Positions 40,097 through 57,974 of a stretch of 64,000 bases of DNA are shown here, piece after piece (within the stretch, counting starts at the first letter, position 1; each line of letters opens with the position of its first letter). The notes under the pieces were generated by a model. It was not told where the DNA came from, searched no databases, and saw nothing but the letters and a program-made list of their open reading frames with translations. The stretch comes from Eledone cirrhosa (Eukaryota). The stretch is from NCBI GenBank assembly GCA_964016885.1, contig OZ024741.1, positions 357,120,001 to 357,184,000 of the forward strand, written 5' to 3'. The translations under genes were made by a program, and so were the position numbers.

Positions 40097-40565
40097 TTAA
40101 ATTTGGTGGTTTACCACAGGGTAGAATTGATCATTCTGCAATGTTAACCAGACGTAATATGAAAAAAGCACCCAACGTTATGCAACTCATCCATCTTCAA
40201 TGTTGAATTATGCTGGTGGTGAGGAAACGGAGTAAATGTATTATAAAGTGAAATGACAGGAGGCCAAATATGTTGAATTTCCTTAATTTTTTTAATTACT
40301 GTAAACACTATGCCCATTTCAGTGGCCAGGTTGCGTAAGAATCCGGTGACCTCATCAGGTGTAAATAGCATAATAGGTGTATACCAACGGAATGATGGTA
40401 AGCTTTAAGGAAACAAACAGAGGTGGGCGAGCAGTGTGGTAATATACTGCTACGTCCGTCAAAAGCATAGCACACACTTTTTTCTCTTTGTTTTCTTTGC
40501 TTGTTTCCTTAAAGCTTACCATCATTCTGTTGGTATACATCTATTATGCTATTTACACCTGATGA
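40097..40565 (-). mobile_element. pLTR-like island with HHR and partial inverted copy
   Basis: 40352-40416 mirrored at 40501-40565; (TA)n on the left. Confidence 0.65.
40305..40362 (-). ncRNA. Type I hammerhead ribozyme
   Basis: acac-CTGATGA-ggtcaccggattcttacgcaacctggccact-GAAA-tgggca-TA-gtgt; ATTAAA about 10 nt downstream; stem II register ambiguous. Confidence 0.7.
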
Positions 40566-44777: not shown

Positions 44778-46434
44778 TATATGTGTGTGTGTGTGCGTGT
44801 GTGTGTGTGCGTATATCTATGTATATGTGTATATATCTATGTGTGTGTGTATCTATATATGTGTGCTGTGTTTGAGAGAGAGAGATCAGTAACATAGATA
44901 CCACACATTTATTGATTATTTGAATGATACATAATAAAGTCATAGCAAGTACATTTGAAAGTCTTTTCCAAGAATGACGTTAGACTGGCTTCAGCAGGAT
45001 ATACAACTCGTGACTCTAGTATCTGCTGTTATATAACTCATGACTCTAGTATCTGCTGTGATATAAATATATATTCAGTCATTTCAAATTCCCTGTGTCA
45101 AACATATATCAATGTATTATTAAAGGCAACAAATTGGCAGAGTTATTAGGGCATTGAGTTGAAAGTGCCTTGGTATTTGATCCAGCTCACTGCACTTTGA
45201 GTTCAAATCCCACTGAGATCGAGTTTGTTTTTCATTCTTTCAAGGTCAATAAATAAATCACTAGTCCAGGACTGGAGTCCATTCTCTCACATTCTGGAAA
45301 AAATTGATTGTGTTCTGACCTTGAGAGAGATGGGCTCTGCCAGGTTTTAAATACCCAAGACACATTGTGTATGAGGTCAATGCTCCCATGGCTCCACTAG
45401 AAGTTAAGGGCTCTTTACCTACCTAATGTATCAATTACATCACATGTCATCATCATCATTTTTACATAAACCTTACCAAGCTTGCATGAGTTAGATGAGT
45501 CTTCTCTAGCACAGCTTTCCTGCACTTGTCTTCTTCCTTCCTCATCTCCTCTGTAAGGTCCTGAGATCAGCTCTCACAACTTCTGCCCATGTTTTTTTTT
45601 CAGTCTTCCTCTTCTGCTTTTTCTTTCCACTTGTAACTGTCGGCACTTCTTTACCCAACAATCATCAACCATTTGTGATTCAATATATGTGTATGTGTGT
45701 TTCTATGTTAGAAAAAAAATTTAGATAGATAGATCATCATCATCATCATTATCATCAATCATCATCGTCATTATCGTCATCATTTTATATCTTTTTCCAT
45801 GATGGAATAGGTTTGTTGGGTCGTGGCAGTTGAAATCAGTTCATTTTTAGAGTTACTACTCTTCTAGCTAAGTTGAAGGACTATATCTCACCCGTATATT
45901 CCAATTTTCGGGATGGTCTCTATAGCTTGATGCCCTTCCTAACGAGCTATTTTACTTGGTGTGTTTTATCATGGCATCAGAACAAGAGAATTTGCTGAGA
46001 TCTTGACATGACTAAAGAGTCCCTTTTACTCTATGTTATCTCCATTCATTTGTCAACTACTTTATAGACTATAACAGGGGCATTTATTGTGGCACACACA
46101 CACTGGAAAGGTTGCCTTATCCACTGCAAAAGCAACAAAATTCCTTCACACTATGCAGTCTCTATTATTTCAAAGTAAATGTGACTGAGAGGATGATTAA
46201 ATGAGAAGTGATGGCCTAAATTTGGAATGGAAGATCAGGGAGTATGATTTGAGTGTGAAGGAGGAAACAGAGTAATAGGATAGTAAGAACGAGAGAGAGT
46301 GACAGTGGTAGCTTTAGGACTATTTAATAGTAGATGAGAGTAAGTGATGGATATTACAAAGAGGTACCAGTAATAGATATCAGGTAAGCATCTCATGTTG
46401 GAGAGAGAATCATGTTTAACAGTAGATATTGTAT

Positions 46435-47094
46435 ATATGTATGACAACTGATAAAAACAATGCCAATCTCCAACTCACAATCTACAACCAGCAAATTGCT
46501 CAAGTTACGGAGTTTGTATATCTCGGTCACAAACTATCATCAAACAACAATGGAATGTTTGCTGTGCAGTATCGCATCACCCTAGGTTGGGCAGCTTTCA
46601 ACAAGAACAAGGAAGTACTAACATCAAAACGAGTTTCCTATCATTTGAAGGCTAAGATTTTTGACACTTACATCTTACCAGTTGTGTTATATGGTTTTGA
46701 CTGTGCTAATTGGATGATAAGGTCACTTCAGAAGCTCTCTACATTGCAGAACCACACCATGAGACTTATGACTGCCAAGTGATTCAGTGACCGAATCTGT
46801 ATCAGTGAGCTACTCAACATTACCAAACTTAGACCAATTACATCAATTGTCAAGTCAAGAGTACTCAAACTATACGGCCATATAAAAAGATCAACTTGTG
46901 GTGTGAGTAGGTTATGCTTGGAAGGAAGGTTGGCTGGTAAGAGAACCAGAGGCTGGCAGCCAAAACGATGGCTTGACAATGTCAACTTATGGACTGGACT
47001 TGATCTTTGCTCTTTGAAATCTGCTGCTGGTGATCGAACTTTGTGGAGAGAGATATCACATGTTGATGTGCAGTCTGCAACTGGTGGAGTTTAG
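46435..47094 (+). mobile_element. Decayed LINE 3' fragment of a second RTE-like family
   Basis: QVTEFVYLG, GWAAF, ILPVVLYG and GKRTRGWQPKRWLD motifs, with stops. Confidence 0.85.
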
Positions 47095-50019: not shown

Positions 50020-50500
50020 CAGATACATATATACCCTTGACACTTTAGCATTTAAACCAGCTGTATGAGGCTAGAATTATTTCACCTTTTTGAAACCAGC
50101 TGTAACCAGCAGCTCACACGGACATTAAGATATCTTTCTTAAAATAAACAATAATCATCAAAATCTCGTAGACTTGAGATTATGTGAAATAATTATGTGA
50201 GATAAAGCCTTTACCATGAATATACAATAGTAAATATAGAGTAATGTAAATGCTAAAGGCTAATGTAATTTCCAATGACACAATGAGTAAGAAAGCTAGC
50301 CCTTTGAATTACAGGTACACTCAATCTGATAGTCTTCGAAACAGTTTCCATCATTACAATTTCACTTACATGGTTTAAAGATCATGTAAATGAAATTTGC
50401 CCAAGATGCTACACAGTGGGATCAAACCAGAGACCTTATGAGTGTAAAGCAAACTTCTTAACTATTTAGTCATGCTTGTACAAGCTAATGGAGCCCTCAC

Positions 50501-50502
<2 letters not shown>
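50020..50502. repeat. About 480-bp inverted duplication of 59565-60048 (old SINE with nested TTAA MITE)
   Basis: Near-identical reverse complement over the whole length, including the SINE/MITE junctions and unique flank. Confidence 0.92.
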
Positions 50503-50560
<58 letters not shown>

Positions 50561-50563
<3 letters not shown>

Positions 50564-51806
50564 AAAGTTCTAGTTTGTAGGAAAGAAAATAAGGCGCCGG
50601 TCCCTTCCGGGAAATGGCCATGCTCAGTGTGTAGGAAAGGCGTAGGTAGAAACTCCATTTTATGTCCCAAATGTAAAGTATGGGTGCATAAAAGATGTAG
50701 TGGGATCACAGGTAAGCTAACTAAGAACATAGATTTTACATGTGGCCGGTGCTCTGGTGTAATAAGTAGCAGCAAGTGCCCACAGAATACTAGCTCTTTC
50801 AATTGCGCAGAGGGTTCTATAGAAATAGTGGACAGCTTCCGTTACCTGGGTCACAAAATCAGCAGTGGGGGAGGGTGCTCTGAAAGTACAGTAGCTAGAG
50901 TCAGAACTGGATGGAAAAAGTTCAGAGAGCTTATACCACTATTAGCCGCTAAAGGGTTCTCCCTAAAAATGAAAGGCAGGTTGTATGATGCCTGCATACG
51001 AACAGCAATGTTGCATGGCAGTGAGACCTGGGCATTGTGTGCAGAGGATATACGCAGACTAGAGAGAAACGAAGCTTGCATGCTCCACTGGATGTGTAAT
51101 AGTAATATACGTGAATGGCAAAGCATAAACGAACTAAGGAAAAAATTAGAAATAAGAGGGATCAGATGTTGTTTACTCAAGAGAAGGCTACGTTGGTATG
51201 GTCATGTGATGCGCATGAAAGACGACAGCTGTATAACAAAGTGCAGGGCAATAAAGATAGACGGTAGCCACGGAGTAGGCAGACCCAGAAAAACCTGGGA
51301 CGAGCTGATAAATTCCAACCTCACACACTTACACCTCTCCAAGACAATGTCACTTGACCGAGACCTTTGGCGGTACTCAGTAATAGAGAAGACCCGCCTT
51401 ACCTAAATACAAAGTAAAACCTACTACAGTCAGTAGGCATCTCTAACAAAATACACCCCCGTCCCACCACCCCCACCCCATCCACACCGCCCCTTTCAAT
51501 GTAAAGTTATGTTGGTGCCACAACATCCAGGCCGAAACAAATGAGATCGTGTAGGTGTCACGACAAAAAAACACACAGTCCATGCTGTAATGTGGCCGTG
51601 TAGGCAACACAGTAAAAACCTCCCAGCCCCACACTGTAAATGTGGTTGGTGTTAGGAAGGGCATCCAGCTGTAGAAAACCCGCCAGACAGTCCTATGCGA
51701 GCAATGACAACCACTCTTGCCTCAAGTGGGAAAACTCCCGTCCAAACCCATGCAAGCGTGGAACATGGACGTTAAACGACGATGATGATGATGATGATGA
51801 TGATGA
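50561..51806 (+). mobile_element. 5'-truncated RTE LINE, longest young copy, including a C4HC3 finger
   Basis: Open frame 50561-51406: SKVLVC..WPCSVC..CPKC..HKRC..CGRC..IVDSFRYLG..GRPRKTW; (GAT)n tail; (TA)n on both sides. Confidence 0.95.
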
Positions 51807-52496: not shown

Positions 52497-52679
52497 TGGG
52501 AGCCCCTACATGGACACACTAGAAGAGGAAGACCAAGGTTAACGTATGTTGATGCCCTAAGGACAGACACTGGTCTGTTGGAGATGCAGGACATGGCAGC
52601 GATAATGAGGGACAGAGACCGCTGGAGAGAACTCGTCCATGGATCTCGGGAATTTTACCCGCCTTAGATAGATAGATAG

Positions 52680-52680
<1 letters not shown>
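52497..52680 (+). mobile_element. Extreme 3' fragment of a third RTE-like LINE with (TAGA)n tail
   Basis: WEPLHGHTRRGRPRLTYVDAL...MRDRDRWR, stop directly followed by TAGA repeats; inside (TA)n. Confidence 0.8.
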
Positions 52681-52740
<60 letters not shown>

Positions 52741-52892
52741 AGTAAGATGTATGGTAGGACGTATGTGAATCGCGATGATCACGTCTGACTTACCAAATAT
52801 GTGACGGTAGCTAGTTAAGCTCTATGCGTATACGCAGAGCAGAAATATTAGTGAAAAAGAACAAAGGAACTATTATGACATTATAACAAGTT

Positions 52893-52947
52893 TATTGCCG
52901 ACAGCCGTTTCGTCCGACCCCATGGTGGGACTTATCAAGGCATATAA
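52893..52947 (-). ncRNA. Type I hammerhead ribozyme, U3-A8 core variant, in the Penelope-like 3' pLTR
   Basis: ttatatgcc-TTGATAA-gtcc c acc atgg ggt c ggac-GAAA-c ggct g-TC-ggcaataa; GUC triplet, stems I and II well paired. Confidence 0.82.
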
Positions 52948-53864
52948 CATGTGATTGCAAGATCATTGTTTACATCAACGTATCACTCAAGGCTAGCAGT
53001 TTGAAATTGTTGTATACATCAGCAACTCCGCTTTAAGGGGGGGGGGGGGGCCTCTTTTATATTAGTTGTCGGGGTCAGGGATTGAAGTTTAAAAATTAGA
53101 CAAAAATATATAATTCACGCATCAACATTAAACCAAGAGACTTGGGGTCCCGTAGAAGCACCTCAGAAAATCCCTCAATGAGTGCATAAAGCTTACAGGC
53201 TCCAATACACCTATTAGTCTAGAAGAAAATTAAGAGGCTAATAAAATAAGAAAATAAAAATATAAAGTTTCCCTAAAAAATATATAGAGTTCCTATGAAA
53301 TTTCTTCTAGAGAAAAAAAATTTTTTCGAAAGAAAAAAACCTTCTTCCCCCGAGATCACGTTTACAAAATTCAGAAAACTGAATTGAAAACTAGGTTGAA
53401 AGAAACTAATCAATTAGAGGTTAATTCAGAGAGCCTTCCATAAATCTCTCAGAAAAGGCCCCTTTACTATTTCCAATAGGAACTTCTTCCGAGAGACCCT
53501 TCGAAGAATTAAAATTTTAGAGAGCCTTTGAGGATAAATATAAAAACGAATTGAGGAAAATTATACATTAAAAGTTAAAAATTAAAAATTACGGTATTTG
53601 GGATATCCGAGGAATTTTCAAAGGGCTGCTTCAACAGATACAACTTAGGCATAATAGGTACAATAATCTAAGCAACTTAAGCAATTTAATTAGGGAGCAA
53701 TTCAAGGAGTTTATCAAGTTGGGCAAGATTAAAGAAAGTGGTAACTAAGAAAATACATAAGCAAAAAGACAATAATCATAAAATGTATCCTTAAGAAGGT
53801 ACAAGGTAGCTTCAGTGATCTAACCCTGTATTATCACAAAAAAACATTCCAAAATTATTGATAC

Positions 53865-54022
53865 AGGATTAAAATTATTACAAAATCATTACAAAATTAC
53901 CACAAAATCATTACAAAATTATCAAATCATCACAAAATTACCACAAAATCATTACAAAATTATCAAATTATCATAAAATTATCGCAAAATTATTACAAAA
54001 TTATCATAAAATTATTGCAAAA
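53865..54022. repeat. About 12-bp tandem repeat (CAAAATTATTA-like) in the PLE 3' region
   Basis: Repeated (c/t)aaaat(t/c)a(t/c)(t/c)a units. Confidence 0.85.
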
Positions 54023-55895
54023 ATATAACAGGATGAACATTACTGGTGACCGTGTGGGCGCGATATCCATTCTGCCTATGCAGTCCCCTGCACAGCTCCA
54101 GGCATGATATCCACTAGGCGTAAGCAGTCATCTGCATAGCTCCAGGCGCAGCTGGTCTTGTTTAAACGTTCATAGATCACCTGGGGTTCACTATTATCTG
54201 CGTGGACTCTCTGGGAGATGTACCTGTGGATCTAATAGCCAGTGGTTGCCGGATGTGGTCCGTTCGATCCTTTAGTTTCAGGGGTTGAACGCTTTCGCGA
54301 TAGACGAGCCTGCTGGTTCTAAGTCCAAGGTTTCGCCACGCATGATGTATTGGTCCACATGCTATATCGTTAAAAAACCAGTGTGGATTTGACTGGGGTG
54401 GTATATTACGAACTCCAAGTCCACACGCGACTGGTCAAAAGCGAAGGGCTGTCCTCTCTTTGTTTGCTGTATGGGTCGTTCTCAGCCTAGATGGTGGTCA
54501 TGTTATCCATATTCCGTCAGCCCTGTATATTCAAGACAGATCAGGGTATGTATTTGCGGGTATGGTCCTGCGTCTACGTTATCCAGAGGGTCTCGCTTGT
54601 GGTATTTTCAAGTTCGCATGTCATCTCCCGGTCAAGACTGCGCATGCTTCGGTGAATCTCAAGCATGGAATCTTAGGGTATCATATTACACGGGGTGACC
54701 AGCAGAAAATATACATTCTATGCTATCGCGCACGCGCTGGCCTGTGGCTACGACCGTGTCCAGTCTCGGGTAGTAGCAGACAGCAGGTAGACCAGCTATA
54801 CACACCCCTGATCAAGGGGCACAACCCCTAACTTATCGAGTGGTCAGACTTCAAGGGAGTCAACTCTCCAAGCCCATTATGTCGACCGTGGTGAAATACA
54901 AAAAAAAATTCCTATTAGTAAAGAACTAATCACTGATAATAAAGAACCAGCTCAAAAGAATGGGGGGGGGGGCATCTATTTGGGCGGGGGTTTACTAGGG
55001 GAGGGGTGGGGGTGAGTTGCTATAGGCAGGGAGCGGCCGCCATATTGGGTGTTTTGTTACTGTTTCCCTAGGCAGTTCTCGAGTTTGTTGACATACATCT
55101 CCGACGGCACCCTCTCAGATTAGTCAACGTGGTTCCAGGCCCTCACGATGTCCTGCATCGCAGGCATCAGCTGCCCCCAGGTTGCCCAGCAACAGTGTTG
55201 CCACCAATCCCAGGTTGGCAATTGGGACACAGGGTCGTCTGTTCCTCACCAGAGTCCCCATCCCCAATCGGGGAGCCGAGGCATCCATGCGGCCGGGGTT
55301 ACCACAGAGCACCCTGTACGCCAGCGGGGCCGCCACGTGCAGGACTGGGTGGTGTCATGGCTATGTGTCCGGTCTGAAGAAAAAGAAAGAGCTAAGTATG
55401 GTATGGGGGCAGGACGAGAAGATTTCTGATCTCCTGTTGAGCAAGTTGAGCCCTGAGAATACTATGGCATGAGATTCAGATAGGCACAGGCTACAACACC
55501 TGCTCAACGAGCTATATGGAGGAGCCTTAGTAAGGCATCTCCAGCTGAGTGTGTAGGGGGTTTTTGTTTGTTTTAAGCTATGTATATGCCCCGCTAACGA
55601 CGTGGTATTTTTAAGCTTCTCATATCGGAAGCTATACTGGTGGGCGTTGAACCTCGTCTTGAACTCATTAGCGGTTGATCCTACGTACGTCTTAGTATAC
55701 GTGCCTGTGGTTACGTTACAAGCATATACCACGTTCCTGATAAGGCAGTGTCCAGCTAGTGGGCATTTGTCCTTCTTTCTGCAATTACACTCTTTAGTAG
55801 GGACATGTCCCTCAATCAGGGGTGCATGTCCCTCCAAGCGGCCGCGGGGCTGCCTAGTGGGACCGGTTCTATTGCCTAATATCCCCCTGGGTCTT

Positions 55896-57796
<1,901 letters not shown>

Positions 57797-57974
57797 GTGT
57801 GTGTATTAGAAAGAGTAGGGGCCTAAGCTTTTGCCTTTTTAACACTTAATTCCAGACTCAGTCGAAACAGCAAGAGCTCAGCTGTCAAGTCCCGACTCTT
57901 TCTAATATAGTCACACTCTACTATTCCAAGTATTGAGTACTTTGTTGAATAATGGTCTTACTAGTTTAGTACTG

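Follow-up and report, generated by a model that had tools for sequence, protein, structure and literature searches.

A hammerhead motif with a U3-A8 core near the 3' end of a putative Hydra-clade Penelope-like element in Eledone cirrhosa

Described U3-A8 hammerheads and Hydra-clade elements

Hammerheads in which positions 3 and 8 are U and A have been described in Schistosoma mansoni, where Cervera and de la Pena (2014) tied approximately 1,300 of them to the Cercyon Penelope-like elements (PLEs; PMC4209133). The 56 rows of their Fig. S3 include the cores UUGAUAAA and UUGAAAAA, the second of which is tied to a full element, plus one U3-G8 core. These hammerheads resemble the one at our locus in being of type I, in belonging to the 3' repeat of a PLE, in having U3-A8 with the same two heptamers and in being missed by a CUGANGA descriptor. 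They differ from it in PLE clade and host phylum, and also in structure, since at our locus helix III contains a palindromic insert of 4 nt and A9 is followed directly by G10.1, with no additional base. The original prediction implied that a compensatory core of this kind was new to PLE hammerheads. The U3-A8 covariation, both heptamers included, had already been published in PMC4209133, and by that standard the motif is an ordinary one. The change from C3-G8 to U3-A8 is also described for several natural ribozymes by Perreault et al. (2011), with no PLE link stated in the passage concerned (PMC3088659).

The element that carries the motif is most similar to the Hydra clade (e.g., Hydra-1_Obim; Craig et al., 2021, PMC8557442), with which it shares DKT, a CxCX5C linker, a C-terminal GIY-YIG domain without CCHH, the CxxC and CxH motifs, a (TA)n target and a hammerhead with palindromic helix III at about 100–200 nt from the 3' end. 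It differs from the clade as described there in its 2.6-kb 3' region, in approximately 100 residues inserted behind the RT thumb and in its U3-A8 core, all 26 rows (25 families) for this clade in File S2 having ctga..ga cores, although these rows were collected with a canonical-core descriptor. A third comparison is PAc Poseidon (Frangieh et al., 2024, PMC11167929), another PLE with a hammerhead and one in which, as we propose here, uncut RNA is copied from a start downstream of the ribozyme. Single changes at positions 3 and 8 of that ribozyme were dead and a double swap was partly rescued, but its natural pair is C3-G8, the swap was to G3-C8, and the element belongs to another clade and has its ribozyme overlapping the ORF start.

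What is new at our locus is, therefore, a Hydra-clade family with a U3-A8 hammerhead, the variant itself being known. No such family was found in the literature, in a search that covered sources outside subscription papers, Repbase and Dfam. Variants of this type may reportedly already be covered by Lunse et al. (2017). With this finding, the PLEs known to have U3-A8 hammerheads come to include a Hydra-clade family, which is little beyond annotation, and it is confirmed that PLE ribozymes are undercounted when CUGANGA descriptors or Rfam thresholds are used.

The motif and its host element

The window, i.e., the whole 64,000-nt stretch of DNA that was analyzed, contains the motif on its minus strand, reading from 52942 to 52896 (the reverse complement within 52893–52947), with three helices around a core and open at helix I. 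Its parts are as follows:

52896..52942, minus strand: type I hammerhead motif, dimer-type (short palindromic helix III), with U3-A8 core, assigned from sequence, numbering, folds and Rfam
52939..52942 and 52896..52899, minus strand: stem I, UGCC (52942–52939) pairing with GGCA (52899–52896)
52932..52938, minus strand: core box UUGAUAA, in which U3 is 52938, N7 is 52934 and A8 is 52933
52912..52931, minus strand: stem II, of 4 bp, a C.C mismatch, 3 bp and a 4-nt loop
52901..52908, minus strand: helix III, ACGGCUGU, with 2 bp in the monomer and 8 bp (two of them G.U) between two copies, −9.7 kcal/mol
52899..52900, minus strand: predicted cleavage site, after C17 of GUC, from its place in the fold
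52891..52896, minus strand: AAUAAA, whose first A is also the last base of stem I'

Stem II is formed by GUCC (52931–52928) and GGAC (52915–52912), with G10.1-C11.1 retained, followed by the C.C mismatch, the pairs ACC/GGU and the loop AUGG. G12, A13, A14 and A15.1 occupy 52911–52908 and are followed by C15.2-GGCU-G16.2, U16.1 (52901) and C17 (52900). The conserved core is complete (U4 G5 A6, A9, G12 A13 A14, A15.1-U16.1, H17 and G10.1-C11.1), and positions 3 and 8 form a Watson-Crick pair, U3-A8, the consensus letters C3-G8 being absent. The predicted layout, consisting of the core UUGAUAA, the stems, GAAA, the GUC site and AAUAAA on stem I', was therefore found in full on the minus strand, and pairing between positions 3 and 8 is retained with U-A in place of C-G. 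The statement that the stems are intact is correct for stems I and II; stem III in the monomer has just 2 bp and a 4-nt loop. A short helix I and a short palindromic helix III, on the coding strand and near the 3' end of a PLE, are the marks of a dimer-type PLE hammerhead, and all were found here.

The host element lies on the same strand:

52665..52740, no strand: (TA)n target tract, 3' side
52741..52890, minus strand: element end past the hammerhead; some other copies seem to end near 52845
52943..55360, minus strand: long non-coding 3' region, with an 11-nt minisatellite at about 53850–54050; all 30 bins covered by contigs of runs X1 and X3
55361..55981, minus strand: open frame with CxCX5C linker and GIY-YIG endonuclease (VVY...YVG, CxxC, NRRSE, CxH)
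55896..57696, minus strand: 5'-truncated RT frame (DKT, TLKDHK, YRDD)
57697..57797, no strand: (TA)n target tract, 5' side

The presence of RT and GIY-YIG domains bears out the assignment to the PLEs. Although the RT frame went unrecognized by Pfam profiles, it had 496 relatives at E ≤ 0.001 among 7,101 candidates, two Argonauta proteins included, the best at 44% identity. The Pfam GIY-YIG match (E 0.0088) was under its cut-off, and the aligned relatives bear the same motifs. By eye we identified VPSDKTRN (DKT for DKG), the linker CNCRKKDKC, VVY...YVG, CSLC and CPH, in an endonuclease without CCHH. Based on these traits, matched by eye, we regard the element as a putative Hydra-clade PLE. Two other candidates were dropped: a Naiad identity, since the endonuclease is C-terminal, and a UGA read-through or selenoprotein, since the frames are not the same and there is a further stop after the first. 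A non-LTR retrozyme, which would have tandem non-coding units of about 170–600 nt with one hammerhead each, was also rejected, there being a single hammerhead and no tandem unit here.

The copy itself, which is single and broken, is probably inert. Its N-terminal RWK region has been lost by 5' truncation (RW is present in four of seven aligned relatives, the other three of which begin later), and an 8-nt deletion at 55914/55915 puts the RT out of frame with the endonuclease. Contigs of runs X1 and X4 carry eight extra letters at 55914 that bring RT and endonuclease into one frame, and thus the frameshift is peculiar to this copy, in which the single ORF typical of the Hydra clade is broken while being present in others. 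"Coding PLE", as the original prediction had it, is accordingly an apt description of the family but not of this copy. The (TA)n tracts on both flanks indicate insertion into (TA)n, and the hammerhead is near the element's 3' end, as predicted, but about 155 nt short of it rather than terminal. Contig cover is unbroken over the element and rises stepwise towards the hammerhead end, as expected from 5' truncation, although no contig spans from ORF to hammerhead and summed contig depth does not equate to copy number. The 3' region, at 2,616 nt, is unusually long for the Hydra clade. A second hammerhead or a 5' repeat (pseudo-LTR or tandem partner) was not found in this 5'-truncated copy; truncated PLEs with the 3' hammerhead alone are common in Table S1 of PMC4209133.

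Several minor features of the element were also noted. Five X1 contigs join (TA)n from opposite sides, four at 52845 and one at 52848, which suggests a second element end about 100 nt inside the present one, like a PLE "tail"; this tail would be of about 100 nt, compared with the 30–40 bp described for PLEs. The low-complexity insert of about 100 residues (approximately 56190–56500, minus strand) lies between the RT thumb and the motif RNRRR..FNPPF, and the Argonauta protein P0005 has a shorter insert at the same place. The 11-nt minisatellite of the 3' region is common to other copies.

Detection of the motif and conservation of the U3-A8 pair

The motif was matched by a strict descriptor, drawn up after the motif had been seen, that had no match in any of 60 block-shuffled windows. 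A loose descriptor gave 0.22 matches per shuffled window compared with three in the real one. Rfam Hammerhead_1, whose consensus has C3-G8 and a 6-bp helix I, aligned over its full 45 positions to 52943–52894 with 19 bits, compared with a gathering score of 34 (E 0.019, 121 bases searched). Hammerhead_1 was absent at E ≤ 1 from an Rfam search of 15 kb, in which the sole matches were to miRNA models and were driven by microsatellites. Since the motif scores under the cut-off and is unlisted in the 15-kb search, standard annotation overlooks it, and so the expectation that it would evade CUGANGA searches can be extended to the Rfam threshold.

To follow the pair across copies of the family, contigs of four runs from three organisms (284, 24, 13 and 9 contigs, respectively) were aligned to 52760–53200 at a likeness of at least 80%, and differences were listed from 3%. 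No change was listed at U3 (52938) or A8 (52933) in any of the four runs, and no contig class with C3 or G8 was found at 3% or more, with the proviso that C3-G8 sister families could be missed because of the 80% limit and the loss of rare variants from contigs. Within 52896–52942 only five positions varied: N7, two loop II bases and the C.C mismatch (52921, 52920 and 52916), and A9. The A9 change, the sole one among the constrained positions, was in a single contig of depth 4; otherwise the catalytic positions and the GUC site had no listed change. N7 (52934) had another letter in 85% of the summed X1 contig depth, so that the family majority is UUGAAAA while this copy has UUGAUAA. Changes thus fell at four of seven free positions versus one of 40 constrained positions (Fisher p 0.0009), although the family is young and these variants may, therefore, represent few independent events. 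Based on this pattern of variants, we regard U3-A8 as a trait of the family, rather than decay in this copy, and the hammerhead fold as constrained. The suggestion of selection is in this way supported as regards the fold.

Folding did not single out the monomer. Its hammerhead fold has −12.2 kcal/mol, the lowest-energy fold (−15.6 kcal/mol) is not a hammerhead, and its folding energy is unremarkable relative to shuffles (z −0.81). The eight bases of helix III are self-complementary, and an unconstrained cofold of two copies gave, at −42.5 kcal/mol, a double hammerhead in which stems I are exchanged between the copies and helix III is of 8 bp. The energy gained on dimerizing is not special (58 of 300 shuffles reach the same gain), and we consider the predicted topology, not the gain, to be the informative part of the dimer model; it is the dimer form known for animal PLE hammerheads (PMC4209133; reviewed in PMC6765202). 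The tail behind the motif (52899–52741) has a folding z of 0.01 from one sequence, and a conserved hairpin behind the ribozyme is thus unsupported.

Cleavage, copying and alternative readings

We consider it likely that the motif represents the 3' hammerhead belonging to a Hydra-clade PLE, in the known U3-A8 form, and that it cuts slowly after C17 and only as a dimer joined through helix III. Cleavage is inferred from published precedent: PLE hammerheads are weak in vitro and act as dimers (PMC4209133), natural U3-A8 cores are described as active in vitro (PMC3088659, with reference to Przybilski and Hammann, 2007), and the ribozyme of the anole PLE requires its 3-8 pair and cut solely when the protein of the element was present (PMC11167929). 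If tandem copies were read through into one transcript, two hammerheads would be able to form the double hammerhead, probably aided by the element's protein, and its cleavage would release unit-length RNA, as has been proposed for the trimming of tandem PLE transcripts (PMC4209133). The tandem transcript is assumed, because this copy has no second hammerhead or 5' repeat. The RNA copied for the present insertion would have had its ribozyme site uncut or re-ligated, as the DNA has both the intact motif and 155 nt past it. Reverse transcription would begin downstream of the ribozyme, primed at the (TA)n target, and in this case may have halted early, giving the 5' truncation. This copy agrees with the findings on the anole PLE, in which uncut RNA is the main template and reverse transcription begins downstream of the ribozyme (PMC11167929). 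Counting against the proposed role of cleavage, insertion did not need it in the sole PLE tested in vitro (PMC11167929).

An alternative, which we regard as unlikely, is that the fold is kept as a structural or protein-binding RNA end with little or no cutting in vivo, U3-A8 having drifted once catalysis was dispensable. The derivation of the present insertion from uncut RNA is consistent with this, as are the weak in vitro cutting of PLE hammerheads (PMC4209133) and the anole PLE, in which core mutants left insertion unaffected and RNA reads ending at the site were absent (PMC11167929). Against it, the catalytic positions and GUC site are held across the aligned contigs, a compensated 3-8 pair is expected only where the active fold matters, and U3-A8 ribozymes are among those stated to be active (PMC3088659).

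It is quite doubtful that the hammerhead tail constitutes a non-autonomous unit of its own, similar to a retrozyme or SINE, that adjoins or was captured by the coding element. Such a unit could be indicated by the summed depth, which at the hammerhead end far exceeds that over the ORF, and by the length of the 3' region (2.6 kb) in a clade whose elements are generally under 3 kb in all (PMC8557442). However, the ORF and hammerhead are on the same strand and are not separated by a (TA)n tract or tandem unit, all 30 bins are covered with a stepwise rise like that from 5' truncation, and the distance from the hammerhead to the end fits that in published Hydra families (PMC8557442).

Similarly improbable, in our estimation, is that the hammerhead and AAUAAA form one switch, in which helix I would mask a poly(A) signal and yield an uncut or circular template, while the open form would be polyadenylated and translated; the weaker U3-A8 pair, on this account arisen independently in the Hydra clade, would tune the balance. 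AAUAAA occurs once in the 2,616-nt 3' region, compared with about 1.0 expected from composition, and the copy extends about 145 nt beyond it into (TA)n without poly(A). As read from its sequence, AAUAAA is at most a candidate poly(A) signal, and the template of this copy, which retains the motif intact together with 155 nt behind it, would not have been polyadenylated there. The arrangement does recur, since AAUAAA is on or just after stem I' in nine of the 56 rows of Fig. S3, counted by eye (PMC4209133); no discussion of the overlap was met in the portions of that paper examined. If masking of the poly(A) signal were true, it would assign a role to the PLE hammerheads, described as being of unclear function (PMC8557442), and the present family could serve to test it.

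Finally, that a canonical CUGANGA decayed in a dead copy by two chance transitions, or that the motif is a chance match, is very improbable and has been largely refuted: despite the truncated and frameshifted state of the copy and the sub-threshold Rfam score, C3 and G8 classes are lacking from the contigs of all four runs at the 3% level, neither position is in a CpG, and strict matches were absent from the shuffles.

Two other regions of the window have hammerhead-like motifs. At 2429–2751 there is a 323-nt inverted repeat with arms 81% alike, amid TA-rich sequence, whose minus-strand arm has a canonical-core motif at 2532 (CUGAGGA, 8-bp stem I) with a palindromic UAUAUA helix III and AAUAAA directly behind. 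It looks like head-to-head PLE stubs of another family and is probably the "HHR island", a term not met among the papers listed in a literature search, that the original prediction tied to the present element. The tie is apparent in architecture but not in sequence, no kinship with the hammerhead tail being found (the best match was of 14 nt, E 0.81). A weak canonical-core candidate (CUGAUGA, imperfect stem II, 4-bp stem I) at 40305–40358 on the minus strand is close to what the loose descriptor finds by chance. Plus-strand fragments at 46426–47094, 50489–51406 and 52500–52667 resemble LINE retrotransposon ORFs; the second has a PHD finger (Pfam E 9e-7) and the third adjoins the (TA)n tract that received the PLE.
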